In this document: piece after piece, positions 1 through 19,134 of the stretch
How positions within the stretch are numbered: position 1 is the first letter of the stretch
Layout of the letters: each line of letters begins with the position of its first letter
DNA from: Candidatus Nomurabacteria bacterium
GTDB lineage: Bacteria; Patescibacteriota; Minisyncoccia; Phycocordibacterales; UBA9973
Reading direction: 5' to 3'
Assembly (NCBI GenBank): GCA_943350445.1
Contig: CALRAE010000003.1
Coordinates: forward strand, 1-61,172
Length of the DNA: 61,172 nt
Notes under the pieces: model-generated
Seen by the model: only the letters and a program-made list of their open reading frames with translations
Database searches by the model: none
Told to the model about the DNA's origin: nothing
Position numbers and translations under genes: made by a program

Positions 1-555
1 TGACAAATCAATACCTTGTTGTTTTGCAACTTTTGCTAATTCATAACTAGCCCACCAACCGTATAATTTTTTCCTTTCATCAATACTAATTAACTGATTT
101 TCTACTTGCCTTTCAGCTTTCGCACCAACAATTGGTTGTGTAACGCCCAACCCTTGTCTCAACTCCCCAATCCTTTTTTTATCAGCTTTTTGCCTTTCTT
201 CTTTTGCTAACTCTGTAGATTCTTTTTCTCGTAAAGAAGCAAGCACTCTCGCTTTTTTTTCCTTCTGAGCCTTCGTCTTTTCTGGATCAACATATTCAGG
301 AATTGTCCAAATAAAATCTAGGGTTTCAGAATCTAAACCCCTGTATTGAGGAGGAACTCCATTTGTCTCTTCTAGCACACCCTCATTAACTTCTGAATTT
401 TGTTCAGCAAGTCTTTTTTCAATACCGGACTTAAAAGAGGCTGGAAGGCCTTGAAAAATAGAATCTTCAGATTCTCCATTTCTGATACGATCGACATATT
501 CCTGAATCTTTTGCTCTCCGCCGACAAGAGGCTTAGTACTGTCTATGGATTTCAT
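1..555 (-). CDS. hypothetical protein, 5' part only (ORF continues past the window start)
   Basis: Own reverse-strand translation from the ATG (complement of 553-555) reads MKSIDSTKPLVGGEQKIQEYVDRIRNGESEDSIFQGL... and stays open to position 1. It is missing from the ORF track only because it is open-ended. No family recognised. Confidence 0.6.
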   Translation of the reverse strand, partial: MKSIDSTKPLVGGEQKIQEYVDRIRNGESEDSIFQGLPASFKSGIEKRLAEQNSEVNEGVLEETNGVPPQYRGLDSETLDFIWTIPEYVDPEKTKAQKEKKARVLASLREKESTELAKEERQKADKKRIGELRQGLGVTQPIVGAKAERQVENQLISIDERKKLYGWWASYELAKVAKQQGIDLS

Positions 556-563
556 ATTATTCC

Positions 564-1745
564 TTAATTATACCACTTCCCCAGTTTAGTCAAAATTTCG
601 GACAAAGCTTTGACTGTGTAATCGATATCTTGCTTAGTTGTTTCTCTGCCTAGTGAAAATCTTAAAGAGCCATCCTCATCTTTTATATTTTTATTGATTG
701 CCTGTATGACATAAGACACTTTGCCATCGCCGGATTTGCAGGCGCTTTTGGCTGAGGCCATGATGCCTCGCGCCGAGAGCTCAATAACCAAAAGATCGCT
801 CGGAATATTCGGAATAGTAATATTCACATTATTCGGCAATCTATTTTTCAAATCGCCATTTAAATCTATTCTATAATTCGTTAGAATTGTAGAATTGGTT
901 AATTTAGAGACAAAATAGTCACGAAGCTTAGTCAGGCGTTTTGTTTCTTTTTCTTTAATTTTTTGCGCAGATTTTAACGCGTGAGTAAATTTCAAAATCT
1001 CAAACAAATTTTCCGTCCCCGGACGCAATCCCATTTCTTGGTCTCCCCCGCCGAATACTTTTGCGAGCGGTACGGAACTTTTTTTGTAAAGCACGCCGAC
1101 TCTGCCCGCGCCTTCAATTTTTGAACCGGAAAGCGTTAGCATGTCCACTCCTAGTCTAGCCACATTCAAATCCAGATAATTCGCGGCCTGAACTGCGTCG
1201 GTGTGAAATACGGGGAACCTCTCCCAAGAGGTGAGGTGTGTTTTTTTATAGCGCCTAATTATTTTTGCGATTTCTTTTATCGGCTGGATCGTGCCGATTT
1301 CGTTGTTGGCATAATGCACTGAAACTAATATCGTATTTTTGTTTATTTCTTTCTCTATTTTTTTAGGGTTCACAATTCCGCTTTCCTCAACCGGAACAAT
1401 GGAAATTTTCGCGAGCTTCCTTTGCTCAAGCATTTTGAAAGTTTCCAAAACAGACGGATGCTCTATGTTTGTAGTTATGATATGAGGCAAATTAAACCCC
1501 TCCCCACCCCCTCCCCTTAATAAGGGGAGGGCTCCCTGAATTGCCAAATTGTTACTCTCAGTACCTCCGCTTGTAAAAATTATCTCCTGTGGCTGAGCAT
1601 ACAGCAAATTAGCAACCCCGCTACGAGCATTTTCCAGTTTAGAGCGAGCTTCTACTCCCAAAGTATGTATAGAACTAGGATTGGCGTTCACGCTTGCGGC
1701 ATAATCTAAGTATAAATTATGGGACTTTTTGGTTGATTTAACCAT
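564..1745 (-). CDS. cysteine desulfurase / class-V aminotransferase (NifS/IscS-like), copy 1
   Basis: 393 aa. It has a PLP-lysine region (LSGSKIEGAGRVGVLY) and an active-site Cys region (SAKSACKSGDG). Paralog of 6527..7690. Confidence 0.85.
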   Translation of the reverse strand: MVKSTKKSHNLYLDYAASVNANPSSIHTLGVEARSKLENARSGVANLLYAQPQEIIFTSGGTESNNLAIQGALPLLRGGGGEGFNLPHIITTNIEHPSVLETFKMLEQRKLAKISIVPVEESGIVNPKKIEKEINKNTILVSVHYANNEIGTIQPIKEIAKIIRRYKKTHLTSWERFPVFHTDAVQAANYLDLNVARLGVDMLTLSGSKIEGAGRVGVLYKKSSVPLAKVFGGGDQEMGLRPGTENLFEILKFTHALKSAQKIKEKETKRLTKLRDYFVSKLTNSTILTNYRIDLNGDLKNRLPNNVNITIPNIPSDLLVIELSARGIMASAKSACKSGDGKVSYVIQAINKNIKDEDGSLRFSLGRETTKQDIDYTVKALSEILTKLGKWYN

Positions 1746-1769
1746 AAAAATAGTATATATTATCTATCT

Positions 1770-2225
1770 ATGAATACAAAGCTTCAGATTGCTTTTTTTG
1801 TTGTAACCGGAATCGCCCTAGCGATGATTGCTATTTGGGCTATAGTCACGGAAAGGCGCCTGAAAAGATTTTTCCTAGGCAAAAAAGCGAAAGATTTAGA
1901 AGATACTATTGTTAGTTTAGAAAATCACATTATTCAGCTGAAAAAATCAAAAGAGAATATTGAAAAAGAAATGGCCGTGATAAACGCAAAGCTGAAGAAA
2001 AGCGTCCGCGGAGTAGAGACGATACGCTTCAATCCTTTCCCCGACCAAGGCAGCAACCAAAGCTTCGCCATCGGCATGCTGAATGAAGAAGGCGACGGCG
2101 TGGTATTTTCGAGTTTATATTCCCGCGACCGAATGAGCGTATTTGCCAAGCCGGTGAAAAATCATAAATCAGAATACGAACTTTCCGCCGAAGAAAAAGA
2201 TGCTTTAAATAGAGCAAAAGTATAA
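1770..2225 (+). CDS. DUF4446-like single-pass membrane protein, copy 1
   Basis: 151 aa with an N-terminal TM helix, a coiled-coil segment and the block RFNPFPDQGSNQSFA...VVFSSLYSR. The family name comes from memory of that motif. Confidence 0.6.
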   Translation: MNTKLQIAFFVVTGIALAMIAIWAIVTERRLKRFFLGKKAKDLEDTIVSLENHIIQLKKSKENIEKEMAVINAKLKKSVRGVETIRFNPFPDQGSNQSFAIGMLNEEGDGVVFSSLYSRDRMSVFAKPVKNHKSEYELSAEEKDALNRAKV

Positions 2226-3739
2226 TGCAAGAAAATAAAAATAATAAAATAACTTCTCGTCCGCCAGTAGTCGTCGTCATGGGACACATCGACCATGGCA
2301 AATCTACGCTTCTCGACTACATTCGAAAGACAAATGTGACGGATACGGAAGCAGGAGGCATAACTCAAAATATTTCCGCATATGAAGTAGTGCATAAAGA
2401 CGAGCACGGCAAAGACCAAAAAATTACTTTCCTCGACACTCCGGGCCACGAAGCCTTTTCTAAAATGCGGGAGCGCGGAGCGGTAATTGCCGATATTGCT
2501 ATCCTGGTGGTTTCAGCCGAGGACGGTGTGAAACCCCAAACAATTGAGGCTTGGAAAACGATAGTCGAAGCCGGGCTGCCTTCTATCGTCGCCATAAACA
2601 AGATAGACAAGCCGGGCGCGAATGTCGAAAAAACCAAACAAGAGCTCGCGGAAAATGAAATTTATCTGGAAAACTACGGAGGCAAAATACCATGCGCGGA
2701 AATTTCCGCCAAGACAGGAGCCGGAGTAGATGGCCTCTTATCGCTCATTTTGATTCTATCGGAAATGGAAAATTTCACTACCAGCATTGAAGAAGACGCA
2801 ACCGGCTTCGTCATAGAAGCAAACTTAGATTCTAAGCGCGGAATACAAGCGGCTCTAATTGTTAAAAATGGAACTATCGGCAAAGGAATGTTTGTGGTGG
2901 TGGAAAATACCATTTGCTCCACACGCATGATCCAAAATTTCAAAGGAGAAATGATCGAGAGCGCTTCCCCTTCCGCGCCGATACGACTTTGCGGTTTTGA
3001 TAAAATGCCCAGAGTCGGCGCTCCGTTCAAATCTTTTAAAAAGAAAAAAGAGGCTGAGGAATACATAAAAAAATTACCCCCTCGCTCCGACCTAGGTCGG
3101 AGCACTCCCCCTTCTCAAGGGGGGGAGGGTAGCAAAAAGATTATACCTATCATGCTCAAAGCCGACGTTTCCGGCAGTCTTGAAGCTATCGAAAAAGAAA
3201 TTGCTAAAATAAAAAACGAAGGAGCGGAATTTAAAATTATAGCGAAAAGCGTGGGTCCTATTTCCGAATCTGATATAAAAAATATCTCTAACAGCGAAAA
3301 CGCCATAATTATCGGATTCAACGTCAAAGCCGACAAAAGCGCTAGCGAAGTCGCAGAGAAGCGAGGCATAACCATCTCTTTCTTCGATATCATTTACAAA
3401 ATGACCGAGTGGCTCACGGTAGAGATGGAAGCGAGAAGGCCGAGGATAGAGACGGTAGAGACGACGGGAAAGGCGAAAATCATCCGGGCTTTCAGCCGCA
3501 CCAAAGAACGCCAGATCGTCGGCGGAAAAGTAGTCGAGGGACGCATGCTCCTAAATGGCACAGTTAAAATTATGCGCCGGGAATTTGAAATCGGGCGCGG
3601 GAAAATCGTAAACTTAGAGCAAGGCAAGGTCAAGACAAGCGAAGTTGCCGAAGGCCTAGAGTTCGGCATGATGGTCGAATCGAAAATAGAAATAGCGCCG
3701 GGCGACATTATTGAACTATTTTCCATAGCGCAAAAATAG
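2225..3739 (+). CDS. infB: translation initiation factor IF-2, short form, copy 1
   Basis: GTPase motifs GHIDHGKST, DTPGHEAF and NKID, with the C-terminal IF-2 domains. Only 504 aa, so the long N-terminal region is absent. Confidence 0.9.
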   Translation: MQENKNNKITSRPPVVVVMGHIDHGKSTLLDYIRKTNVTDTEAGGITQNISAYEVVHKDEHGKDQKITFLDTPGHEAFSKMRERGAVIADIAILVVSAEDGVKPQTIEAWKTIVEAGLPSIVAINKIDKPGANVEKTKQELAENEIYLENYGGKIPCAEISAKTGAGVDGLLSLILILSEMENFTTSIEEDATGFVIEANLDSKRGIQAALIVKNGTIGKGMFVVVENTICSTRMIQNFKGEMIESASPSAPIRLCGFDKMPRVGAPFKSFKKKKEAEEYIKKLPPRSDLGRSTPPSQGGEGSKKIIPIMLKADVSGSLEAIEKEIAKIKNEGAEFKIIAKSVGPISESDIKNISNSENAIIIGFNVKADKSASEVAEKRGITISFFDIIYKMTEWLTVEMEARRPRIETVETTGKAKIIRAFSRTKERQIVGGKVVEGRMLLNGTVKIMRREFEIGRGKIVNLEQGKVKTSEVAEGLEFGMMVESKIEIAPGDIIELFSIAQK

Positions 3740-3740
3740 C

Positions 3741-4073
3741 ATGAGCCAAGAGAATCAGCGAAAAGACAAAGTGGCAAATTATCTCAAAGAGCTAACCGCC
3801 GAATTTTTGGGGCGGGAAAATAATAGAACCTCGCTCATCACCGTGACGGGCGCCACCTGCTCCCCCGACCTGAAGCGCGCCACCATCTTCATCACCGTGC
3901 TGCCGACTGAAAAAGAATCTCTCGCCCTCGAATTCGCCAAGCGCAAAAGAGGCGAACTGCGCGAATTTTTCAAAAAGAAACTAGAAATAAAAACTATCCC
4001 CTTTATAGATATAGCCATAGACCTAGGAGAAAAACACCGCCAAAAAATTGACGAACTGCTACGAAATGGATAG
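3741..4073 (+). CDS. rbfA: ribosome-binding factor A, copy 1
   Basis: 110 aa lying directly after infB, the classic infB-rbfA order. RbfA-like core LITVT...SPDLK.A.I.I. Confidence 0.8.
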   Translation: MSQENQRKDKVANYLKELTAEFLGRENNRTSLITVTGATCSPDLKRATIFITVLPTEKESLALEFAKRKRGELREFFKKKLEIKTIPFIDIAIDLGEKHRQKIDELLRNG

Positions 4074-4092
4074 ACTTTAGGAAGTTTGTAAC

Positions 4093-4164
4093 GGCCTGGT
4101 AGCCAAGTAGTAAGGCATTCCTCTGCAAAAGGAATATACGTGGGTGCGATTCCCACCCAGGCCT
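4093..4164 (+). tRNA. tRNA-Cys (GCA)
   Basis: Hand-folded cloverleaf: acceptor GGCCTGG/CCAGGCC, anticodon arm TTCCT-CTGCAAA-AGGAA, T arm GTGGG-TGCGATT-CCCAC. 72 nt, no encoded CCA. Confidence 0.9.
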
Positions 4165-4167
4165 CAT

Positions 4168-4491
4168 TTATTTTTCTCGAAGCAATTCGTCAATTCGCTG
4201 TCTGTGTTTTTCTCCGAGGTCGAGCTCGATGTCGATGAAGGGAATATTCTTTGTGGTCATCTTTTTCTTAAAGAATTCTCGAATTTCTGGTCTTTTGCGC
4301 TTGGCAAATTCTAGTGCAGTTTTTTCTTTGTCTGTCGGCAATACAGTGATGTATATGGTCGCCTTTTTTAAATCAGGCGAGCAGTCGGCAGAAGTCACGG
4401 TGATGAGTGATGTCCTATTATTTTCTCTCATCAAAAATTCTGCTGCGAGTTCTTTTATATAATTTGCTACTTTGTCATATCGTTCAGACAT
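4168..4491 (-). CDS. rbfA: ribosome-binding factor A, copy 2
   Basis: 107 aa, clearly homologous to 3741..4073 (DKVANY.KEL.AEFL.RENNRTSLITVT...). Confidence 0.8.
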   Translation of the reverse strand: MSERYDKVANYIKELAAEFLMRENNRTSLITVTSADCSPDLKKATIYITVLPTDKEKTALEFAKRKRPEIREFFKKKMTTKNIPFIDIELDLGEKHRQRIDELLREK

Positions 4492-4492
4492 T

Positions 4493-6043
4493 TTATTTTT
4501 GGGCTATTGAGAATAATTCAATGACGTCTCCGGATGCGACTTCGATTTTGGATTCGATCATCATGCCGAACTCCAGACCCTCCTCAACCACGCTGGTTTT
4601 CGCTTTGGCTTGTTCTAGGTTGACGATCTTCCCACGGCCGATCTCGAACTCTCGGCGCATTATTTTAACTGTACCGTTTAAGAGCATACGTCCTTCGGTC
4701 ACTTTACCACCTATGATCTGGCGTTCCTTTGTTCGACTAAAAGCTCGAATTATTTTTGCTTTACCTGTGGTCTCTACTGTCTCCACCCTAGGGCGCCTTT
4801 GCTCCATTTGTTCTTCTAGGAATTCAGTCATTTTATAAATAATATCAAAGAAAGAAATTGTGATCCCACGTTTTTCTGCCATTTCGATTGCACTCTTGTC
4901 TGCCTTCACATTGAACCCGATAATTATGGCAGCTTCACTGTTTGAAATATTTTTTATATCAGATTCAGAAATTGGACCTACGCCCTTACTGATGATTCTA
5001 AATTCTGCGTTATCGTTTGCTTTTCCATCAACCCCTTTACATTTTATTTTGGCGATTTCTTTTTCTATTGCTTCAATAGATCCAGAGACATCCGCTTTTA
5101 ATAATATTGGGATTATTTTCTTATCAGCTTTTTTTTCAGAAGTTTTTATATCGGATTTATTTTTTTCACCCTTTTGATTCTGCTCAATTTTCCAACTTTC
5201 CGCGTATTCCTGAGCACCCTTTTTGTTTTTGAAAGTCTTAAACATTGCTCCCACTTTTGGCAATTTATCAAAACCACATAGACGTATGGGTGTTGAAGGG
5301 GAGGCACTATCTACCGTTACTCCTTTAAAGTTTTGTATCATGCGTGTAGAGCAGATGCTGTCTTCGACAATTACAGTCATGCCTTTTGTGATTGTTCCAT
5401 TTTTTATGATAAGAGTGGCTTGTATTCCGCGTTTAGAATCAAGTTCTGCTTCGATGACAAAACCCGATGCATCTTCACCCGTATTTTCGGTGAAATTTTC
5501 CATTTCAGCTAAAATCAAAATTAATGATAACAGACTATCTACCCCAGTTCCTATTTTTGCAGAAATTTCTACGAAAGGGGTTTTGCCTCCATAATTTTCT
5601 AAATATATTTCATTCTCTGCAAGGGTTTGTTTTGTCTTTTCAATATTCGCGCCGGGCTTATCTATCTTGTTTATAGCAACAATTACTGGTAGCTTGGCTT
5701 CCACAATTGTTTTCCATGCCTCAACTGTCTGTGGCTTTACGCCATCTTCAGCAGAGACCACAAGAATAGCGATATCTGCAACGATTGCGCCACGTTCTCG
5801 CATTTTTGAGAAAGCTTCGTGCCCTGGGGTATCAAGGAAAGTTATTTTCTGATCTTCCCCTTTCTCATTTTTGTGAAGTACTTCATAAGCAGATATGCTT
5901 TGGGTGATACCACCAGCCTCACCATCAACTACGTTTGTTTTGCGGATATAGTCTAAAAGCGTAGACTTGCCATGGTCAATATGACCCATGACTACTACGA
6001 CTGGTGGACGAGGAGTGATTTTGTTTTCTTTGTTTTTTTGCAT
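4493..6043 (-). CDS. infB: translation initiation factor IF-2, short form, copy 2
   Basis: 516 aa with the same GTPase motifs as copy 1. It differs from copy 1 mainly by indels in the linker after domain II. Confidence 0.9.
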   Translation of the reverse strand: MQKNKENKITPRPPVVVVMGHIDHGKSTLLDYIRKTNVVDGEAGGITQSISAYEVLHKNEKGEDQKITFLDTPGHEAFSKMRERGAIVADIAILVVSAEDGVKPQTVEAWKTIVEAKLPVIVAINKIDKPGANIEKTKQTLAENEIYLENYGGKTPFVEISAKIGTGVDSLLSLILILAEMENFTENTGEDASGFVIEAELDSKRGIQATLIIKNGTITKGMTVIVEDSICSTRMIQNFKGVTVDSASPSTPIRLCGFDKLPKVGAMFKTFKNKKGAQEYAESWKIEQNQKGEKNKSDIKTSEKKADKKIIPILLKADVSGSIEAIEKEIAKIKCKGVDGKANDNAEFRIISKGVGPISESDIKNISNSEAAIIIGFNVKADKSAIEMAEKRGITISFFDIIYKMTEFLEEQMEQRRPRVETVETTGKAKIIRAFSRTKERQIIGGKVTEGRMLLNGTVKIMRREFEIGRGKIVNLEQAKAKTSVVEEGLEFGMMIESKIEVASGDVIELFSIAQK

Positions 6044-6502
6044 TTATTTTACTTCTGCTTTCTTTAATGCTTCTTTTTCTTCCGCACTCAATTCGTATTC
6101 TGATTTATTATTTTTAATGGGTTTTGCAAAGATACTCATGCGTTCACGAGAATATAGACTTGAGAATACCACTCCGTCACCATCTTCATTTAATATCCCA
6201 ACTGCAAAACTTTGGTTACTACCCTGATCAGGGAATGGGTTGAAGCGGATGGTCTCTAACCCACGGATACTTTTTTTCAACTTTGCATTTATAGTTGTGA
6301 TGTCTTTTTCGATATTATTCTTTGCTTTTTTGAGTTCAGTGATATTGTTTTCTAAAATAGTGATGGTGTCTTCTAGATCCTTCGCTTTTTTACCTAAAAA
6401 GAATCTTTTCAATCGTCTCTCTGTCACAATCATCCAAATAGCGCCCATGATTATGGCAATGCCTCCTAAAACAAAAAAAGCCAGTTCGAGCTTTGTATTC
6501 AT
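6044..6502 (-). CDS. DUF4446-like single-pass membrane protein, copy 2
   Basis: 152 aa, homologous along its full length to 1770..2225. Confidence 0.6.
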   Translation of the reverse strand: MNTKLELAFFVLGGIAIIMGAIWMIVTERRLKRFFLGKKAKDLEDTITILENNITELKKAKNNIEKDITTINAKLKKSIRGLETIRFNPFPDQGSNQSFAVGILNEDGDGVVFSSLYSRERMSIFAKPIKNNKSEYELSAEEKEALKKAEVK

Positions 6503-6526
6503 ACCGCTATAATATATACTATTTTT

Positions 6527-7690
6527 GTGGCTAAATCAAATAAAAGCTCAATAAATAAAGCACGGAAAATATACATGGATCATGCCTCCAGTGCTCTTTC
6601 TGCCTCTGCTAACCCTGGGTCTATTCATGAGTTGGGTGTAAAAGAGAAAAATACATTAGAAAGCGCTAGGGGTATAGTGGCAGATATTTTAAATGCTCAC
6701 AGTAAGGAAATTATTTTCACCTCTGGGGCAACAGAAAGCAACAATTTGGCTATTTTGGGTTTGATTAATGCGGTGAATCGTTTATTTTTACCGCACATTG
6801 TGACTACCAACATTGAACACTCATCAGTTTTAGAAGTTTGTAAACATTTAGAAAAAACAAAACAAGTGGAAGTGACTTATGTGTCGGTGGAGGGTAGTGG
6901 TATTGTCGATCCAGAAAAAATTAAAAAAGCTCTCAAGCCAAACACTGTCTTGGTTTCTGTAATGTATGCAAATAATGAAATAGGAACGGTGCAACCAATT
7001 CGGGAAATTGCAAAAGAAATTCGGCATCATAATAAAAATCTTGAAAGTAAGGTTTTTTTTCACACTGACGCAGTTCAAGCAGTAAACTATCTGCCGGTTA
7101 ATGTTGCCCAGCTGGGAGTGGATATGATGTCTATCAATAGCGCTAAAATATATGGTCCAAAAGGAGTAGGGGTTTTGTATGTAAAGAAAGGCACACTCAT
7201 TAGCCCTATTATGTTTGGCGGTGATCAAGAGTTTAGTCTAAGACCAGGCACAGAGAATGTGGCTTTAGCTATTGGTCTCGCAAAAGCTCTAGAGACTACT
7301 GAAAAAATGAAAGAAATTGAGGTGAAGCGATTAACAAAATTTCGGGATTATTTTTTTAAGAAATTATCTAAAATAAAAAATATTAAATTTACAATTAATG
7401 GTGATCTGGAAAAAAGGTTAGCAAATAATATAAACATAACTATTCCAAATATTCCGAGCGATCTTTTAGTCATTGAACTTTCAGCACGTGGGGTGATGGC
7501 ATCTGCGAAGAGTGCTTGCAAGGCAGGGGATGGTAAAGCTTCACATGTTATAGAAGCTATACACCCCAACGTAAAAGAAACTGATGGGTCTTTGAGGTTT
7601 TCTGTAGGAAGAGAAACCACAAAAGCTGATATTGACTATACTATTAAAGCTTTATCTCATATTTTATCCAAGCTAGAAAAGTGGTATTGA
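6527..7690 (+). CDS. cysteine desulfurase / class-V aminotransferase, copy 2 (GTG start)
   Basis: 387 aa with a PLP-Lys region (NSAKIYGPKGVGVLY) and SAKSACKAGDG. Paralog of 564..1745. Confidence 0.85.
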   Translation: MAKSNKSSINKARKIYMDHASSALSASANPGSIHELGVKEKNTLESARGIVADILNAHSKEIIFTSGATESNNLAILGLINAVNRLFLPHIVTTNIEHSSVLEVCKHLEKTKQVEVTYVSVEGSGIVDPEKIKKALKPNTVLVSVMYANNEIGTVQPIREIAKEIRHHNKNLESKVFFHTDAVQAVNYLPVNVAQLGVDMMSINSAKIYGPKGVGVLYVKKGTLISPIMFGGDQEFSLRPGTENVALAIGLAKALETTEKMKEIEVKRLTKFRDYFFKKLSKIKNIKFTINGDLEKRLANNINITIPNIPSDLLVIELSARGVMASAKSACKAGDGKASHVIEAIHPNVKETDGSLRFSVGRETTKADIDYTIKALSHILSKLEKWY

Positions 7691-7715
7691 CATTAATGTC
7701 ATTTGGGTGTAGAAT
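7687..7715 (+). promoter_or_regulatory. sigma70-like promoter (TTGACA, 17-nt spacer, TAGAAT)
   Basis: TTGACA at 7687-7692, a 17-nt spacer, then TAGAAT at 7710-7715. It overlaps the nifS copy 2 stop codon. Confidence 0.55.
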
Positions 7716-7747
7716 GCAAAGAGTATAAGTTCTTTCATATTTTGCAT

Positions 7748-7813
7748 AACTCACTGAGCTTTTAGTTTATGAATATAGGACATATTCGTAGTTTAAAAGC
7801 TCGGTGAGTTTTT
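7748..7813 (+). terminator. long hairpin followed by a T-run (attenuator- or terminator-like)
   Basis: The arms aactcactgagctttta (7748-7764) and taaaagctcggtgagtt (7794-7810) pair over 17 bp with one G:U. An inner stem is gaatat/atattc. TTTTT follows. Confidence 0.4.
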
Positions 7814-7875
7814 AATTGCACACTAAGGTAGTTGTGCACACCAGCAATCAACCAAACTACACACAGCATGACACC

Positions 7876-8037
7876 ATGACACATTGTGAACACTGCAGGG
7901 AGGAGTTGCCAAAACATCCGGAGACACAAACCCCCCACTGCTTTATCGTCAGGGAGCTGATCGTCTGCGTTCAGTGCTTGCTGAACTTTCGGTCGGAGAT
8001 TCTTCCGGAGAACGTGCAACAACAAGCAGAGCAGTGA
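7876..8037 (+). CDS. possible small Cys-rich protein (53 aa); may instead be part of a non-coding RNA
   Basis: ATG-initiated ORF MTHCEHCREELPKHPETQTPHCFIVRELIVCVQC... with two CxxC pairs. No SD and no nearby -10 box. The opposite strand is also open, and the region is locally GC-rich. Confidence 0.25.
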   Translation: MTHCEHCREELPKHPETQTPHCFIVRELIVCVQCLLNFRSEILPENVQQQAEQ

Positions 8038-8055
8038 GTAGTAAGGTCCATCAAA

Positions 8056-8098
8056 GGGCCGAAGAAAAGCGCCGATGTGCTTTCCTTCGGCCCTTTTT
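8056..8098 (+). terminator. intrinsic terminator
   Basis: The stem gggccgaag (8056-8064) pairs with cttcggccc (8085-8093) and is followed by TTTTT. Confidence 0.7.
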
Positions 8099-8140
8099 CT
8101 TTTGATTTTGACTAAATAAAAAAGATGCTATAATCGAGTT

Positions 8141-8950
8141 ATGGACATCAAGGATCTAAACAAACCACAATTGATCCTACTCGCGGTACTTTTGAGTTTT
8201 GTGACTTCTATCGCGACGGGTATAACAACAGTTACGTTGATGCAACAAGCACCAAAGTCCTTTACTGCACCTATAAACCGTGTCGTTCAACAAACAATTG
8301 AGAAAATACAACAAGTCGAAGGTAAGACCACAGTCCAAACAGTGATTGTGAAAGAAGAGGACTTGGTGGTAGATGCTATTGCGAAAAACAAATCAGTGAC
8401 ATTTACTATTACCAAGGAAGTTTTAGATGCAGAAGGAAAAAATGTTGAAGTTTCTGTCGGTAAAGGTTTTGCAGTAAATGCTGATGGCACTATCGTCGTG
8501 GATGGTAATCTAATTTCAGAGAAACAAGTATATTATGTAAAAAATGAGAGTGGTAAATTTAAGGCAGATTATGTTTCTACAGACAAGGCTGGCTTTTCTT
8601 TTGTAAAAATAGGGGCTGCGGTAAATGGCACAGACAAGCTTGTGGTCACAGTGCCTATCTTCGGAGATTTGGAGAAAATGAAAATAGGTCAAAAGATTTT
8701 AGTGTTGGGCAACACTATCGCTGCATCTATTTTTGAGGGGAACAAAAATCTGAATGTGAGTATCACAAAAGGTAGTGCAGGAGGGGTAGTACTCAATCTA
8801 GACGGGGAAGTCATAGGTATTGCTTTGTTTGGAGATGGCGCGAACTTCGCTTCGATCAATAGTATAAATAGTGCTTTAAAACCTTCTCTCGATCCTGCGA
8901 CCAGTATGACTGCATCTCCAGTACTTGCACCAGCTACTTCTACACCATAG
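8141..8950 (+). CDS. membrane-anchored trypsin-like (HtrA/S1C-type) domain protein, probably non-catalytic
   Basis: N-terminal TM helix. S1C-like blocks GKGFAV..DGTIVV and GSAGGVVLNLDGEVIGIA, but the triad positions are substituted (see findings). No PDZ domain. Confidence 0.6.
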   Translation: MDIKDLNKPQLILLAVLLSFVTSIATGITTVTLMQQAPKSFTAPINRVVQQTIEKIQQVEGKTTVQTVIVKEEDLVVDAIAKNKSVTFTITKEVLDAEGKNVEVSVGKGFAVNADGTIVVDGNLISEKQVYYVKNESGKFKADYVSTDKAGFSFVKIGAAVNGTDKLVVTVPIFGDLEKMKIGQKILVLGNTIAASIFEGNKNLNVSITKGSAGGVVLNLDGEVIGIALFGDGANFASINSINSALKPSLDPATSMTASPVLAPATSTP

Positions 8951-9001
8951 ATAATGTTGTGCTTGACAGGTAGTGTATAATGAAAAAATAAACAAAAATA
9001 T

Positions 9002-11707
9002 ATGCCACCATTAAATAAATTTACAACCAAAGCCAAAGATGCCATCAAGAGAGCTCATGAGCTCGCTATTGAGCGTGGAGTGAACCATGTTTCCTCAGTG
9101 CATTTGCTCGCAGCGCTACTCATCCAAGAAGAGAGTATGGTGAATTCAATTTTAGATAAATTGGAAATAGACACGATGCTCCTTACTGACTCTGTTTTGG
9201 AATTAATAGAATTACCAGAGACTCACACCACTCTTTCTCCTTCATATCAGATATATCTCAATCCAGATCTTGCCCAAGTAATAGAACAATCAGCCAAAAT
9301 AGCGGAGTCCATGAAAGATGACTTTGTTTCTACTGAGCATCTATTCATAGCTATACTAGAAGTGACTTCTGAGGCACGTGAGACTTTAGCACGATTTAGA
9401 ATCCACAAAGACTCAGTTGTGAAAGTAATCGAAGAACTTCGCAGCCAAAATATCACTGATGTAACAGAACCAAAGAAATTTAAATTAATTTTGAAATACA
9501 CTCGCAATCTGACAAAGCTAGCCAAGGAAGACAAACTCGACCCAGTTATCGGCCGTGATAGTGAAATCATGCGCATCATGCAAATTCTTTCAAGAAGGAC
9601 CAAAAATAATCCAATTCTCATCGGTGAAGCGGGTACAGGCAAGACAGCGGTGGTGGAAGGACTCGCACAAATGATCGTAAAGAATAATGTTCCAGAATCT
9701 TTAAAAGACAAAGAGCTTGTGTCGCTTGATTTAGGGCTACTTGTCGCTGGTACCAAGTATCGTGGAGAGTTTGAAGAGAGATTGAAAGGCATCATGAAGG
9801 AAATTGAACGTTCAGATGGTAAGGTTATTATCTTTATCGATGAGATACACACCATCGTCGGTGCTGGCGGTGCTGAGGGCTCAATGGATGCTTCAAACAT
9901 GTTGAAGCCTGCTCTTTCTCGTGGAGAACTCCGAGCTATTGGTGCGACGACTTTACGAGAATATCAAAAACACATAGAGAAAGACCCAGCGCTGGCTAGA
10001 CGCTTTCAGCCTGTATATATAGATGAGCCTAATATTGAAGACGCTGTGGCTATACTTCGTGGACTAAAAGAAAAGTATGAACTTTTCCATGGTGTGCGTA
10101 TTACAGATGACGCCATCGTATCTGCGGTCAATCTTTCTGCTCGATATATCACAAACAGATTCTTGCCAGACAAGGCGGTGGACTTGATAGACGAAGCTTC
10201 TTCTTCACTCAAGATAATGTTGGAAAATAAACCACCTATTCTAGAAGATGCACATAGGAAAATAATGCGTTTAGAAATTGAAAAAGAAGCTCTAAAAAAA
10301 GAGATATCTAGTTTGGCTGGGGAGGTAAGTAAAGAAGATAAAGAAAAACAAAAAGAATTAAAAAATAGAATCAAAGAGGTGGATAGTGAAATAGGCAATT
10401 TGCATGAAAAAACAAAAGAGCTCGAATTAAAGTGGCAAAATGAAAAGACAATTGTGGTAGAGATACGTGCTATCAAAAAAGATCTAGAAAGTCTGCGTCT
10501 GGAGGCTGAGAACGCTGAGATGAAGTCGGATTTGTCTCGCGCGGCAGAGATACGCTACGGTAAAATTCCAAATCTAAAAAAAGAACTTGAAACCAAACTT
10601 TCACGATTAAAGAAACTACAAAAATCACGCCGAATTTTAAAAGAAGAGATTACTGCTGAAGACATCGCTGAGGTTGTTGCGCGTTGGACTGGTATACCAC
10701 TCACCAAGATGCTCGAAGAAGAACGTGCAAAACTTGAGAAGATGGAATCAGAATTGAGCAAGAGGGTGATGGGTCAAGATGAGGCCATCAAGCGCGTGTC
10801 AGACGTCATCCGACGTTCTCGTGCTGGTATTTCTGATCCGAATAGACCTATCGGCTCTTTCATCTTCCTTGGTCCGACCGGTGTCGGTAAGACTGAGCTT
10901 ACAAAGGCCCTTTCTGCTTTTATGTTCAACGATGATCGTGCGATTATCCGTGTCGATATGTCTGAATATATGGAAAAGCATTCGATCTCAAAACTTGTCG
11001 GTTCTCCACCTGGATATGTCGGTTATGATGAAGCAGGACAACTCACAGAGGCTGTCCGACATCGCCCCTATGCAGTTATACTTTTCGATGAGATAGAAAA
11101 AGCTCATCCCGATGTCTTCAATATGCTTTTGTCTGTGATTGATGAAGGTAGACTAACTGATGGAAAGGGAAGAGTGGTGAATTTTAAAAATACCATCATC
11201 ATTCTCACTTCCAACATTGGTTCACAATTTGTAGAAAAGATGGAATCAATCGGGTTCTCTAATAATTCCAAAAAAGACGATTACAACAACATGAAAGATA
11301 AAGTGATGGAAGCGTTGAAAGACAATTTTCGTCCAGAGTTTTTGAATCGTTTGGATGAGACTATTGTCTTTGATGTGTTGAGTGAACAAGCAATAGGTGA
11401 GATAGTTAAGTTGAGGGTACAAGTGGTCAAAGACCGCTTGGCCGGTAAAGGTATTGGTTTTGAGATTTCTATGGAGGCCTTGGTGTACTTGGCAAAAGAG
11501 GGTTACAATCCGCATTATGGTGCAAGACCACTGAACCGTTTGATTCAAAATAAAATCCTAAATCCCGTGGCTTCTTATATTATTTCAAATGGTGTGAAGA
11601 AAGGGGACATGGTGAACGTGACTGTAAAGAACAACGAGCTTGTTATCGAAAAGAAAAGAGAAAAGGTAAAAAGCTCTATTCAAATGAGGACTAAGGAGGG
11701 GGTGTAG
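9002..11707 (+). CDS. clpB: ATP-dependent chaperone ClpB
   Basis: 901 aa with a Clp N domain, two AAA+ modules ([16 protein letters not shown]) and a long coiled-coil middle domain. Confidence 0.95.
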
Positions 11708-11720
11708 AAAGAATAAAAAA

Positions 11721-11746
11721 AGAGCCCCATAATGGGGCTCTTTTTT
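11721..11746 (+). terminator. intrinsic terminator after clpB
   Basis: The stem agagcccca/tggggctct is followed by TTTTTT. Confidence 0.75.
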
Positions 11747-11755
11747 AAAAACCTG

Positions 11756-11828
11756 TGGACCCAAGCGGTCTCGAACCGCTCACCTCCTCATTGCAAATGA
11801 GGCGCTCTACCGGATGAGCTATGGGCCC
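11756..11828 (-). tRNA. tRNA-Ala (UGC)
   Basis: Reverse complement GGGCCCATAGCTCATCCGGTAGAGCGCCTCATTTGCAATGAGG...TGGGTCCA. G3:U70 is present, the anticodon loop is TTTGCAA, and the T loop is TTCGAGA. Confidence 0.9.
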
Positions 11829-11850
11829 AATTTACTTTCAAATCCGAGGG

Positions 11851-11922
11851 CTCCGAGGGTAGGGATCGAACCTACGACCAATCGCTTAACAGGCGACCGC
11901 TCTACCGCTGAGCTACCTCGGA
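11851..11922 (-). tRNA. tRNA-Asn (GUU)
   Basis: Reverse complement TCCGAGGTAGCTCAGCGGTAGAGCGGTCGCCTGTTAAGCGAT...CCTCGGAG. The anticodon loop is CTGTTAA. Confidence 0.9.
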
Positions 11923-12120
11923 ATTTACTTTTAAAGAACCTATTTATACTAGCAGAAATTATAAAAAAAACAACAAGATATTAAACCTATCAATCTAGCC
12001 AAGGATATTTTCAGCTATAGACTTTATATAAAAATATTGTGTAAAAAGATTTGCACAGATTTTGGGTGGTTATGAACTATCTATGCACAGGTTGTTCATA
12101 CTTTTCGCGCATTCATGCTA

Positions 12121-12149
12121 TTGACTTTTTTCTGTTTTGCGAGATAATT
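12121..12149 (+). promoter_or_regulatory. candidate promoter (TTGACT, 16-17 nt spacer, GATAAT/ATAATT) inside a 450-bp intergenic region
   Basis: The hexamers were read directly. No start codon follows within 10 nt. Confidence 0.3.
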
Positions 12150-12378
12150 ACATAAAGCTAATCTTTCTAGGGAGACTCTAAAAAATTTACAAAACTTGTT
12201 TCATGTATCTCGAGAGTTATGATCTCGAATCAGAGACAAAAAATTATATAAAAGTGGTTTTCCCTTACTAGAGGATCAGCTACACAAACCGAGGCCCTTC
12301 GTTAAACACGGGGGCCTTTGGTGTATACGAACTATTTGAATTATTGATATTTTGGTAAATATCTAGTATAAACTAAAT

Positions 12379-12783
12379 ATGAAAAGAAATATTTTTATAT
12401 ACATCATTGCTGGTGCTGTATCTCTCATCATCTTCACATCTGCCTCCGCTGCCACTTTTCCTATTCCTGGGGTTGAAGTTTTTGCCAAAAGTATTGTAAG
12501 TAGCCAAGTTTCTGTGGGGGGTGCAGATAGTAGTGGTAATTTTACTGTTTCAGTAAAAGAAGAAAATGGCACCTATAATGTTTTCTTTGTTGACCAGAAT
12601 TTTCCTCCAGTAAAAATGACAGCAAAGGGTGGTGTGATCAGTGGTCGTATTGTTGTTCTGACTGATGGAACCACGACAAAAGATCCCGAAGTCATTATTC
12701 TAAAGAACAAGTCTGTTCCAGTTAAGGCGATAAAAAAAGTCTCAAAACCCGTAGTTAAAAAAGTTAACCCGAAGTTACCCTAA
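12379..12783 (+). CDS. small secreted protein (signal peptide), unknown function
   Basis: 134 aa. N-terminal hydrophobic segment ending ASA-AT, and a Lys/Val/Pro-rich C-terminal tail. Confidence 0.6.
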   Translation: MKRNIFIYIIAGAVSLIIFTSASAATFPIPGVEVFAKSIVSSQVSVGGADSSGNFTVSVKEENGTYNVFFVDQNFPPVKMTAKGGVISGRIVVLTDGTTTKDPEVIILKNKSVPVKAIKKVSKPVVKKVNPKLP

Positions 12784-12838
12784 ATTTTCTATTTAGAATA
12801 AGTCTTGCATTTAAAAAATAAAAATATAAAATAGAACC

Positions 12839-13354
12839 ATGAAAAATCAAATAAAAATGCGTCCAGATGTTGCTTTGCTTATTACCAGACTTATTATCGG
12901 TGGAATTTTCGTTTTTAGTGGGTGGGCTAAGGTTTCCGATATGACGGGGACATTTGGTATGTTTAGTCAGATGGGGATACCGGTTTTCTTGACATACATA
13001 GTATCATACGGAGAATTGATAGGTGGGGTCATGTTGGTGCTCGGTTTGTGGACAGAGCTCGCAGCGCTTTTCCTGACTATTGTAATGCTTGTGGCTTTTT
13101 ATCTAACAAGGCACTTTGGTTTTCAAGCGTTTAGTATGCCGCTCGCGACACTCGCCGGACTTTTAGTAATTATTGGATGTGGGCCTGGAAAATATAAAAT
13201 GAAAGAAATGTGTGGAGGACACTACATTTGCCGTGGGGGTTGTAAGGGGGTCTCAAAAGTAAAAGGCATTTGTCAGGCATCAAACTGTGCAAGTCGTGGC
13301 CAAGATCTCTCTATGTGTAATTGCGGAGATAGCCTGCATAATTATTTTAAATAG
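12839..13354 (+). CDS. DoxX-family membrane protein with a Cys-rich C-terminal extension
   Basis: DoxX-like N-terminus LLITRLIIGGIFVFSGWAKV and four TM segments. Residues ~121-171 contain 7 Cys. Confidence 0.7.
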   Translation: MKNQIKMRPDVALLITRLIIGGIFVFSGWAKVSDMTGTFGMFSQMGIPVFLTYIVSYGELIGGVMLVLGLWTELAALFLTIVMLVAFYLTRHFGFQAFSMPLATLAGLLVIIGCGPGKYKMKEMCGGHYICRGGCKGVSKVKGICQASNCASRGQDLSMCNCGDSLHNYFK

Positions 13355-13391
13355 GCTTATTTTAGAAATAAGGTTTTGGGTGAAATTAAAG

Positions 13392-13422
13392 ACCAGCACC
13401 GTCTCCGAGAGAGGGTGCTGGT
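13392..13422. terminator. hairpin between convergent units (bidirectional terminator candidate)
   Basis: The stem accagcacc (13392-13400) pairs with ggtgctggt (13414-13422). T-rich runs lie on both sides when each strand is read. Confidence 0.55.
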
Positions 13423-13441
13423 TCTTTGATGTTGGTGGGGC

Positions 13442-13636
13442 TTAGCAGCCCATGGTCGTGGCACCCGCATAGGGGTGCTTGGAGTGAGACCAGCGTGAGC
13501 TTACTGACAGCTTATGCATTTTTGGTCCTTGTCCGAACCCGATGATTTGATCCAGGGCGGATCTTTTCCTTCTCGACTTCCTGCTATTGTTCACGCGAAG
13601 TGCATCTTGCGTGGTCTGGTCTTCCTTTGATGCCAT
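13442..13636 (-). CDS. possible small basic protein (64 aa); coding status uncertain
   Basis: The ATG at 13636 is preceded by GAGGAA 9 nt upstream. The sequence is MASKEDQTTQDALRVNNSRKSRRKRS.... The segment is GC-rich and no family was recognised. Confidence 0.25.
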   Translation of the reverse strand: MASKEDQTTQDALRVNNSRKSRRKRSALDQIIGFGQGPKMHKLSVSSRWSHSKHPYAGATTMGC

Positions 13637-13720
13637 ATGTGTTGGTTCCTCTACTTTCATTGATCTACTTTAAAGATCGCAAGCACACTCCATGTTGCTG
13701 TGCTTGTTCTTCAAGAGGGT

Positions 13721-13748
13721 ATTGTATTGACTTTGGGTTCTTTGTCAA
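13721..13748 (-). promoter_or_regulatory. sigma70-like promoter on the minus strand (TTGACA, 16-nt spacer, TACAAT)
   Basis: The reverse complement reads TTGACAaagaacccaaagtcaaTACAAT. Confidence 0.5.
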
Positions 13749-13784
13749 GTCGAACGTAATATACCAATAGCTTGGAATCACTCA

Positions 13785-13967
13785 CTATTTAAATAGTTCG
13801 AAGAACTTTACGGGATCAATCGCAATATTGTTGATGCGAATACCTAGATGCAGATGCGCGCCGAGCGTGTATCCAGTTTGCCCGCTTAACCCTATGACTT
13901 GGCCCACCTTCACCACATCGCCGACTTTTACTTTAATTTTAGACAAATGCAAATAAAAACTCATCAT
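13785..13967 (-). pseudogene. C-terminal remnant of an M23 (LytM-type) metallopeptidase
   Basis: Only 60 aa remain (...YLHLSKIKVKVGDVVKVGQVIGLSGQTGYTLGAHLHLGIR...), covering the HLH motif half. An in-frame stop lies 7 codons upstream, and the HxxxD half is absent. Confidence 0.6.
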
Positions 13968-14203
13968 TCCGAGCCCATGCTTCCGTCATTTAGCTCTGCC
14001 GCTAATTCGTAAGTTCCTACTTTTTTATTCAAAACGAGAGAAAGGTAGCGTCTCCTTAGCTTTGTTGTAATAAATTGTTTGTATTATAATAAAGAGATGT
14101 ATTGATCCGAATACTGAATTGGCAATACTAGACTAGTATTTAAATTAAATTAAATATATACTAGAATAGGAATGCGATAGATCGTGTATTTTTATTACGT
14201 AAT

Positions 14204-15742: not shown

Positions 15743-15749
15743 AAGACCA

Positions 15750-18713: not shown

Positions 18714-19094
18714 ATGAAAAAACAGAACGAAAACAACGGAAATCTGGTGATGTGGATGGCGATCGCATTGGCGCTCGTGTGTCTCATCGGTAGCTCGGTG
18801 ATCATCAAACGCTATGGGTGGCCGCCAGGGAACAATATGACCAAGGAGTCGCCGGTGTTTACGCCGGTGGAGAAACTTTTCCTACCCGAGCCTGAGCCTT
18901 CGAGGAAGGACGGTTCAGCAGGGGATCTGGCGGCGAAGCCAGCCAGTTACAAGTTGGTAGTCGGGGCGAACCCGACGGTCAACCAGAAGCAGATATTCGC
19001 ACCTCCGACGAATTCGGTGGTGATCACGAATCAAGTGCAACTTGACCTGCTCACCAAGCAGGCCAAAGAGTCGCGCCAACAAGCAAAGAAGTAA
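18714..19094 (+). CDS. membrane-anchored protein, unknown function (GC-rich island)
   Basis: 126 aa with one TM helix (VMWMAIALALVCLIGSSVII) and a Pro/Glu-rich linker. Codon usage is GC-rich, unlike the neighbouring genes. Confidence 0.6.
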   Translation: MKKQNENNGNLVMWMAIALALVCLIGSSVIIKRYGWPPGNNMTKESPVFTPVEKLFLPEPEPSRKDGSAGDLAAKPASYKLVVGANPTVNQKQIFAPPTNSVVITNQVQLDLLTKQAKESRQQAKK

Positions 19095-19134
19095 AACAGC
19101 AATCAAAACCGCAACGCAGAAAAACACTCAGAAA

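Follow-up and report, generated by a model that had tools for sequence, protein, structure and literature searches.

Whether a streamlined bacterium may carry two diverged copies of core translation genes is the question raised by one end of this contig. Taken at face value, the sequence would describe an ultra-small CPR genome with two diverged IF-2 and RbfA genes, which, if true, would be a surprising claim on translation in streamlined bacteria. The window analyzed here is the entire 61,172-nt contig. Within it, nifS, DUF4446, infB and rbfA at 564-4073 are mirrored at 4168-7690, the two arms being 61-75% identical at the nucleotide level, and arm 1 forms the terminal 4 kb. In the feature list below, arm 1 is attributed to a putative population A and the genome of 4093-61172 to a putative population B, an assignment for which the evidence is developed in the text.

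1..555, minus strand: 5' part (185 codons) of a K/E-rich gene, population A; runs off the contig end, unannotated
564..1745, minus strand: nifS-like cysteine desulfurase, arm 1 (population A); Aminotran_5, E=1.7e-56
1770..2225, plus strand: DUF4446 protein, arm 1; PF14584, E=2.4e-36
2225..3739, plus strand: short IF-2 (infB) of 504 aa, arm 1; Pfam GTP_EFTU and IF-2
3741..4073, plus strand: rbfA, arm 1, with a 110-aa product; RBFA Pfam match
4058..4092, plus strand: 35-nt link GCTACGAAATGGATAGACTTTAGGAAGTTTGTAAC, comprising the end of rbfA (..ELLRNG*) and a 19-nt spacer
4093-4164/5, plus strand: tRNA-Cys(GCA), called by ARAGORN and Rfam
4093..4166, plus strand: tRNA-Cys and 2 further nt, the putative crossing point from population A to population B
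4168..4491, minus strand: rbfA, arm 2 (population B, the contig's main genome); RBFA Pfam match
4493..6043, minus strand: short IF-2 (infB) of 516 aa, arm 2; Pfam GTP_EFTU and IF-2
6044..6502, minus strand: DUF4446 protein, arm 2; PF14584
6527..7690, plus strand: nifS-like cysteine desulfurase, arm 2; Aminotran_5, E=1.2e-64
8141..11707, plus strand: 269-aa protein and ClpB, beyond nifS on the arm 2 side only; family-wide synteny

The mirrored gene order around tRNA-Cys had been described, with these coordinates, in an earlier note made from the sequence alone, and it is borne out: Aminotran_5, DUF4446, GTP_EFTU with IF-2, and RBFA are detected by Pfam in both arms, and the greater part of each arm falls in eight gap-free inverted-repeat blocks, 69-555 nt long and 71-75% complementary, a match far above chance. 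Homology between the arms ends at the nifS stop codons. A comparison of 1-555 with 7691-8950 gave no match, so that the gene of 1-555 is not mirrored beyond arm 2; this gene has no Pfam match and no homologue adjoining nifS in any relative examined, and it is contiguous with arm 1 in an independent contig (L001) that starts at the window's first base. Most of the fine architecture noted earlier likewise stands, as there is a 1-nt infB/rbfA gap in both arms, the tRNA-Cys lies 3 nt from the stop codon of arm 2 rbfA, and the IF-2 linkers differ between the arms. The nifS/DUF4446 spacer is indeed 24 nt long in both, with 19 rather than 18 of the 24 positions identical, while DUF4446 and infB abut exactly in arm 2 but share 1 nt in arm 1. 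When the full window and the stretches 7680-8150 and 13300-14250 were searched with Rfam, five tRNAs and sub-threshold noise were returned, and nothing else.

A palindromic structure at a contig end could reflect a fold-back (hairpin) artefact of amplification or assembly, by which the contig end is copied in reverse complement. Fold-back artefacts yield identical arms, however, whereas the present arms share 61-75% of their nucleotides, have saturated synonymous sites and differ in their flanks; this explanation is refuted by the inter-arm divergence and is scarcely credible. Protein identity, previously estimated by eye at 70-85%, falls within that range for DUF4446 (78.8%), IF-2 (approximately 80.4-80.8%) and RbfA (78.5%), but is 60.8% for NifS. 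With dS between the arms saturated and dN/dS below 0.1, both copies are best viewed as functional genes of long-separated lineages.

The same symmetry, with its conserved spacers, 1-nt gap and abutting genes, could alternatively be the trace of an ancient inverted duplication within one genome that kept both diverged paralogous sets, as the earlier note had suggested. However, the IF-2 copies fall in different clades and are not sisters. The nearest relatives of arm 1 IF-2 are P0003 (84%) and P0005 (83%), with the arm 2 copy ranking eighth at 80.4%, and that of arm 2 IF-2 is P0008 (89%); of the IF-2 proteins found in other genomes, at least 7 lie closer to the arm 1 protein than does the arm 2 copy, and at least 12 lie closer to the arm 2 protein than does the arm 1 copy. 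All four arm 1 proteins find their best match in L091 or L090, and three of them are clearly closer to it than to arm 2, as for NifS1 (80% amino acid identity to L091, 61% to arm 2) and RbfA1 (90% and 79%, respectively); by tblastn, the best other-lineage match of arm 1 IF-2 (L091 or L090) is only about as close as arm 2. Given that the copies are not sisters, a duplication would need to be older than these lineages, whose loci nevertheless contain a single copy apiece. Among the matches listed, approximately 25 related Paceibacteria/Nomurabacteria loci, each considered over ±10 kb rather than as a whole genome, have the block once, followed by tRNA-Cys, with L019 as the single exception; the infB region of a complete 617-kb chromosome is among them. 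The order clpB(-) p269(-) nifS(-) DUF4446(+) infB(+) rbfA(+) is shared by L011-L016, L021, L024, L026, L030, L032, L090 and L091, and the conserved architecture of the two arms is the orthologous architecture of the whole family rather than a mark of duplication. The copies are neither each other's closest relatives nor, apart from L019, both present in the related loci examined.

In independent assemblies the two sides lie on separate contigs with other continuations, and the window's junction occurs in no other record. An 81-kb contig of an NCBI MAG (CALRHJ010000001.1; L005/L007) is 100% identical to the window over 4093-16043 and departs from it exactly at 4093, the 5' end of tRNA-Cys, past which it contains a truncated tRNA-Cys copy, tRNA-Leu(tag), tRNA-Lys, tRNA-Leu(taa) and other genes, without arm 1. 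L008, which MEGAHIT (k141) assembled independently from a different sample, has the same junction as L005: it too is 100% identical to the window down to 4093, departs there and continues into the tRNA cluster. Arm 2 rbfA and the tRNA-Cys 3 nt away on the opposite strand are identical in L005, L007 and L008, and the exact arm 2 IF-2 protein occurs on contigs of 50-200 kb, including CALRHJ010000001.1. Arm 1 is present in four other assemblies (L001-L004) as separate contigs of 2.7-4.2 kb, never joined to arm 2; these are identical to the window up to 4057 and beyond it diverge or end, the last 16 nt of arm 1 rbfA (4058-4073) lying past an assembly-graph fork. Run ERR3719144 has both arms, on separate contigs ending at 4057 and 4137, and a Logan k=31 contig (L006) terminates with the 31-mer 4137-4167. 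The breakpoints therefore flank tRNA-Cys, at 4092/4093 for the window against L005/L008 and at 4137-4167 for the end of L006. The 35-nt link was found as an exact sequence in the window only, and an exact scan of JGI metagenome contigs gave no match to it, a weak negative given that the relevant samples are in ENA/Logan. By exact-product look-up, the window's 110-aa RbfA1 variant is on record nowhere else, and an antisense ORF across the junction was not found elsewhere. The presence of the same population B sequence without arm 1 in other assemblies, together with the non-sister IF-2 copies, contradicts the old inverted duplication and leaves it highly unlikely.

As judged from the sequences, the contig is very probably an inter-population chimeric join via tRNA-Cys and not a biological duplication. 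By this model, two related Patescibacteria (Paceibacteria/Nomurabacteria-like) populations, A and B, would co-occur in the sampled habitat, each carrying a conserved single-copy nifS(-) DUF4446(+) infB(+) rbfA(+) block followed by tRNA-Cys, with a tRNA-Cys sequence of approximately 74 nt that would differ little or not at all between them. During assembly, or when contigs were later merged, the path may have entered the tRNA from population B rbfA and left it into population A rbfA, and the contig would then end 4 kb on, at a fork in population A's poorly assembled graph. The mirror image would arise because the tRNA is oriented oppositely relative to rbfA in the two populations. Relatives with tRNA-Cys on the plus strand, co-directional with rbfA, include L091, L011, L014, L015, L017 and L021, while in arm 2's clade (L005, L012, L092 and L094) the tRNA is inverted with respect to rbfA, on the minus strand. 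In arm 1's clade tRNA-Cys is natively 3' of rbfA, approximately 20-40 nt downstream, as compared with 3 nt from the rbfA stop in arm 2's clade, and the 35-nt link reproduces the native layout from rbfA to tRNA-Cys(+) of arm 1's clade, with comparable arrangements in L091, L011 and L014. In L091, the closest relative of arm 1, tRNA-Cys matches the window's at 70 of 72 nt, with no difference in the 3' 46 nt. We infer that population A's own tRNA-Cys would be identical to the window's over at least k nt, the length of exact sequence common to populations A and B being estimated from L091, and that the two arms are not truly joined by any read pair. If a k=141 assembler was used for this contig, the 74-nt repeat alone would be insufficient to create the join.

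Such a join has precedent: assemblies are known to fail by forming chimeras where related species have k-mers in common (PMC7299287), and mock-community tests report chimeric sequence at contig ends (PMC8172020). As in inter-genome chimeric contigs from short-read metagenomes, the two sides of the window differ in population origin, the switch would fall within a short stretch of high conservation (a tRNA gene in this case), the foreign part is at the contig end, and other assemblies separate both sides. The window is unlike the usual case in its tidy mirror of four orthologous genes, and is judged here from assembled contigs; the tidiness can be ascribed to a common tRNA that stands opposite in orientation to the same conserved neighbors in the two genomes. 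Genuine large inverted repeats, such as those of plastids or palindromic duplications of bacterial chromosomes, similarly show mirrored gene order around an axis. However, their arms are identical or nearly so, or are mutual closest relatives, whereas those of the window are orthologues from different clades with saturated synonymous sites.

Recombination and integration classically take place at tRNA genes, and a minor strain of population B may alternatively have truly gained a xenologous population A fragment, from a different genus-level lineage, by homologous recombination at tRNA-Cys, which would leave two diverged intact sets of IF-2, RbfA, NifS and DUF4446 in mirror. The junction does exist in at least one assembly, the window, and the arrangement of link and tRNA is the expected residue of a crossover within the tRNA; moreover, phylogeny and composition mark arm 1 as foreign, and purifying selection acts on both copies, which are intact. 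However, every independent population B record has the tRNA cluster at this position, without arm 1, and nowhere else are the two arms linked. Arm 1 carries no integrase or other mobile-element gene, its cargo consists of core single-copy housekeeping genes in native synteny and with the native spacer to the tRNA, and it is situated 5' of the tRNA at the extreme end of the contig. In addition, arm 1 contigs reach at most 4.2 kb, compared with about 60-92 kb for population B, a difference that argues for different abundance of the two. The xenologous capture beside a tRNA that the earlier note proposed is thus unsupported, and is improbable. The tests of foreign origin suggested there, unequal GC3 and non-sister grouping, did prove positive for arm 1, although "foreign" most likely denotes another genome in the sample rather than DNA acquired by this genome. 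The third explanation offered, a chimeric join of two related populations, is favored by the breakpoints at the tRNA edges, by a phylogeny in which the copies are not sisters, by composition, by the single-copy synteny around infB in every relative examined, and by the position at the contig end.

A tRNA-associated genomic island or integrative element was also considered and rejected, as there is neither an integrase or recombinase nor, within 1-4092, a repeated tRNA 3' end. By Pfam, the gene content of arm 1 comprises Aminotran_5, DUF4446, IF-2 and RBFA plus one unannotated gene, with no integrase or recombinase, and no second copy of the tRNA end is present in 1-4092, the far end of the block lying beyond the contig. 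The foreign-looking block directly beside a tRNA gene does resemble tRNA-targeted islands; however, the window differs from these in having no integrase and no visible duplication of the tRNA 3' end, in the location of the block 5' of the tRNA, and in a cargo of core genes, for translation and Fe-S functions, with native synteny.

Composition also sets arm 1 apart. As previously claimed, GC-ending codons are used more in arm 1 (GC3 of 0.42-0.54, against 0.29-0.41 in arm 2); the claimed excess of CpG (observed/expected) holds for three of the four gene pairs but not for rbfA, where the values are approximately equal (1.28 and 1.31). Tetranucleotide profiles correlate least with the remainder of the contig in the segments of arm 1 (0.83-0.84, where the mean is 0.954 and the lowest value otherwise 0.89), whereas the same genes in arm 2 give 0.965, typical of the contig, and orthologous blocks from other genomes give 0.87-0.94. 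This composition and the protein matches of arm 1 together place the two sides in different genomes. However, the alternative continuation in the NCBI contig, a control meant to show it native, is also atypical (r=0.75-0.90, GC 0.39-0.47), and composition thus serves as supporting evidence only. The GC-rich palindromes reported for arm 1 are present, including a perfect 20-nt palindrome at 3084-3103, and arm 1 infB contains an in-frame GC-rich double hairpin at 3079-3130. The possibility that the GC-rich palindrome is a dispersed repeat was rejected, as it is single-copy in the window and, among the retrieved loci, occurs in arm 1 contigs only.

The mirror duplication is present in the sequence, and is most likely an assembly artefact rather than a real genomic feature. 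The first ~4.1 kb, that is 1-4092 and an unassignable share of the tRNA, should accordingly be trimmed before binning, marker-gene counts or pangenome work. The case may also exemplify a recognizable class of artefact, in which a conserved tRNA lies in opposite orientation beside the same genes in co-occurring relatives, such that a misjoin leaves a neat, diverged mirror where the contig ends. The pattern recurs in L019, a public MAG that shows the same kind of diverged mirror, also at a contig end.

A repeat-mediated chimeric join of two co-occurring populations is, with high probability, the best explanation for the mirror at the start of this contig, and the mirror duplication is most likely not real as a biological feature. 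Population A denotes the source of arm 1 (nifS-DUF4446-infB-rbfA at 564-4073) and population B the contig's main genome, including arm 2 (the mirror block at 4168-7690); suffixes 1 and 2 on gene names mark the respective arm. The gene order mirrored around tRNA-Cys, as described in the earlier note, is present in the sequence, the layout being drawn from the ORF listing, ARAGORN, Rfam and Pfam:

564-1745, minus strand, nifS-like gene (Aminotran_5), arm 1 (ORF and Pfam)
1770-2225, plus strand, DUF4446, arm 1 (ORF and Pfam)
2225-3739, plus strand, short IF-2, arm 1 (ORF and Pfam)
3741-4073, plus strand, RbfA, arm 1 (ORF and Pfam)
4093-4164, plus strand, tRNA-Cys(GCA) (ARAGORN, Rfam)
4168-4491, minus strand, RbfA, arm 2 (ORF and Pfam)
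4493-6043, minus strand, IF-2, arm 2 (ORF and Pfam)
6044-6502, minus strand, DUF4446, arm 2 (ORF and Pfam)
6527-7690, plus strand, nifS-like gene, arm 2 (ORF and Pfam)

Aligned with one another, the arms are inverted repeats with 71-75% nucleotide identity across almost their full extent. Amino acid identity reaches 78.8% for DUF4446, 80.8% for IF-2 and 78.5% for RbfA, within the 70-85% previously estimated, although NifS, at 60.8%, falls outside that range. A fold-back artefact, to which a negligible probability is assigned, is ruled out by the 25-39% nucleotide divergence between the arms. The reported fine-scale architecture largely holds: the nifS/DUF4446 spacer is 24 nt in both arms, albeit with 19 rather than 18 identical positions, and infB and rbfA are 1 nt apart in each, but DUF4446 and infB abut only in arm 2, overlapping by 1 nt in arm 1. 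Arm 1 likewise exceeds arm 2 in GC3, in CpG (except in rbfA) and in GC-rich palindromes, of which it carries additional ones. Homology stops at the nifS stop codons; past nifS2, 450 nt of spacer lead to genes for a 269-aa protein and ClpB. Synonymous sites are saturated, with dN/dS below 0.1, which argues that both gene sets are working genes from lineages long separated.

In a neighbor-joining tree of 60 IF-2 homologues, the two copies (80.4% identity) fall in separate clades, that of arm 1 nearest to homologues P0003 (84%), P0005 and P0006, and that of arm 2 nearest to P0008 (89%). The best match to the whole of arm 1 is contig L091 (OBEQ011375550.1; NifS 80%, DUF4446 81%, IF-2 80%, RbfA 90%). 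A synteny survey covering one genome per GTDB species plus the closest IF-2 relatives gave, among the matches listed, a family-wide order of clpB(-), p269(-), nifS(-), DUF4446(+), infB(+), rbfA(+), then tRNAs Cys, Leu(taa), Lys and Leu(tag), p269 being the 269-aa protein. The conserved architecture of the arms is thus ordinary orthology. Each of these loci, the infB region of a complete 617-kb chromosome among them, has a single copy of the block. The phylogeny and this single-copy state in relatives both contradict an intragenomic inverted duplication of old date, which is therefore highly improbable, and the feature does not behave as a paralogous duplication.

The tRNA-Cys lies in the same direction as rbfA, approximately 20-40 nt 3' of it, in L091, L011, L014, L015, L017 and L021, and faces the opposite way in the clade of arm 2 (population B, L012, L092, L094). 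The copy in L091 differs from that of the window at 2 of 72 nt, with the 3' 46 nt identical. From these comparisons, tRNA-Cys appears to be a native neighbor of each arm, oriented oppositely in the two and nearly invariant between clades, such that any path crossing between populations A and B would necessarily give a mirror image. The four-tRNA cluster 3' of rbfA is kept across the family (L011-L032, L091, L092, L094), its members being flipped singly or pairwise between lineages, and L092 has an HNH-like gene within it.

Exact-product look-ups place arm 2 IF-2 and RbfA on contigs of 50-200 kb. One of these, the 81-kb CALRHJ010000001.1 of an NCBI MAG (GCA_943359465.1), is 100% identical to the window over 4093-16043 and departs from it precisely at the tRNA-Cys 5' end (4093), continuing with a truncated tRNA-Cys fragment, tRNA-Leu(tag), tRNA-Lys, tRNA-Leu(taa) and approximately 9 kb of other genes in the fetched locus; the contig extends about 26 kb further. 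Arm 1 was not found in that locus (tRNA cluster and ~9 kb). The same junction is present in L008, a 768-nt MEGAHIT k141 contig from a different sample, and the 3-nt gap between tRNA and rbfA2 is the native layout of population B. The truncated 5' tRNA-Cys copy (GGCCTGGTAGCCAAGTAGTA...ATTCCTCTGC; 11952-12066 in L005, the CALRHJ010000001.1 locus, and ~440-555 in L008, outside the window) has the intact tRNA-Cys on one side and tRNA-Leu(tag) on the other, and may be the scar of a local tRNA inversion. As to composition, tetranucleotide usage correlates least well with the remaining contig in the 4-kb segments that cover arm 1 (0.83-0.84; mean 0.954, sd 0.019 and minimum 0.89 otherwise); the same four genes in arm 2 give 0.965, and orthologous blocks of other genomes 0.87-0.94. 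Past the tRNA, the CALRHJ010000001.1 continuation is atypical too (r=0.75-0.90), and composition therefore supports a chimera without deciding the matter.

Arm 1 occurs in four assemblies (L001-L004), exclusively as contigs of 2.7-4.2 kb that agree with the window through 4057, 16 nt short of the rbfA1 stop codon; the first base of L001 coincides with that of the window. Two of the four diverge after 4057, with ..ELLRENK* as RbfA C-terminus and GC-rich hairpins, but no tRNA, beyond it, and two independent ones (k=31, k=141) terminate exactly there. This fork at 4057/4058, in the last 16 nt of rbfA1, may reflect two strain variants within population A, or else a further chimeric step. Run ERR3719144 has both arms on separate contigs, one ending at 4057 and the other having 4137-4167, on the right tRNA edge, as its last 31-mer. 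Exact-product look-ups returned no other record of the window's RbfA1 variant or of the junction-spanning antisense ORF, and the exact 35-nt link (4058-4092) had no match among the JGI metagenome contigs scanned, a weak negative given that the relevant samples are ENA/Logan. The link, comprising the rbfA end ..ELLRNG* and a 19-nt spacer, has the arrangement native to arm 1's clade, where relatives end in ..ELLRNS* (L011) and ..ELLRSS* (L091). At the far end, 1-555 (-) holds the 185-codon start of a K/E-rich gene that runs off the contig; it has no Pfam match, is unrelated to the arm 2 flank, and stands in the place that the 269-aa protein and ClpB take in all relatives, arm 1's closest one among them.

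A real xenologous insertion, acquired by a minor strain through recombination at the tRNA, is unlikely: it is absent from all other population B records, is without mobility genes and would carry core single-copy genes as cargo, and arm 1 gives a far poorer assembly than population B does. The feature does not fit a tRNA-targeted island either. Of the three explanations previously offered, inverted duplication and xenologous capture are thus disfavored, and a chimeric join of related populations is retained on the breakpoints, the alternative junctions seen in independent assemblies, the non-sister phylogeny, the lineage-dependent tRNA orientation, the single-copy synteny and the location at a contig end. 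This model proposes that the assembly path would enter tRNA-Cys from one genome and exit into the other, the wrong turn lying inside the tRNA (4093-4166) and the foreign 4.1 kb forming the contig end. Population A's own tRNA-Cys would presumably share at least k identical bases with that of population B, and genuine read pairs joining the arms would not be expected. The protein database gives 61,172 nt as the length of the longest contig with arm 1 IF-2, so that the window is an entire contig and arm 1 its terminal 4 kb. K-mers common to related species give chimeric contigs in metagenome assembly (PMC7299287), and mock-community tests placed chimeric sequence at contig ends in every case (PMC8172020); the window works like such inter-genome chimeras and agrees with them on most testable points. 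The first ~4.1 kb is flagged for trimming, and the case shows that tRNA orientation polymorphism beside conserved genes can create tidy mirror-image chimeras. A second diverged mirror, probably of the same class of tRNA-mediated chimera, lies at L019 11252-13058 (first ~1.1 kb of the 58-kb MAG contig JAZKAB010000001.1; infB-rbfA-tRNACys-tRNALeu / tRNALys, tRNALeu / tRNALeu-tRNACys-rbfA-infB), again at a contig end and with 76% nucleotide identity over 773 nt.

DUF4446 lies directly 5' of IF-2, abutting or overlapping it, in about 19 of the 23 Paceibacteria loci tabulated (L010-L032; window 1770-3739, 4493-6502), and the adjacent IF-2 is merely 500-520 aa, with its GTP_EFTU match beginning at about residue 16; DUF4446 and initiation factor 2 may be functionally linked in these Paceibacteria. 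The inter-domain linker of arm 1 IF-2 contains, in frame, a 52-nt GC-rich double hairpin (3079-3130; DNA fold z-score -5.1), a 20-nt perfect palindrome GCTCCGACCTAGGTCGGAGC followed by CCCCCTTCTCAAGGGGGGG, present once in the window and, among the loci compared, confined to arm 1 contigs. Its peptide, LPPRSDLGRSTPPSQGGE, is also found in IF-2 linkers of other Paceibacteria (P0004, P0012, P0026), and other lineages have different G/P-rich inserts at the same site; the hairpin looks like an in-frame insertion of palindromic elements. Elsewhere, two neighboring genes at 18714-20244 (GC3 0.70 and 0.59 versus a contig mean of 0.34), without Pfam matches and with hydrophobic N-terminal segments, may encode acquired surface or secreted proteins. 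The gene-poor 850-nt stretch at 13355-14203 (GC 0.45, no Rfam match) is probably a decayed gene, its sole ORF (60 aa, 13785-13967, minus strand) resembling by eye a peptidase-M23 C-terminal fragment. Downstream of nifS2, the spacer up to the 269-aa gene (7691-8140), with no Rfam match above threshold, contains a hairpin with 29-nt arms (7748-7810), a small CxxC...CxxC ORF (7816-8037) with a weak, sub-threshold Rhodanese_C match, and a terminator-like hairpin (8053-8096).
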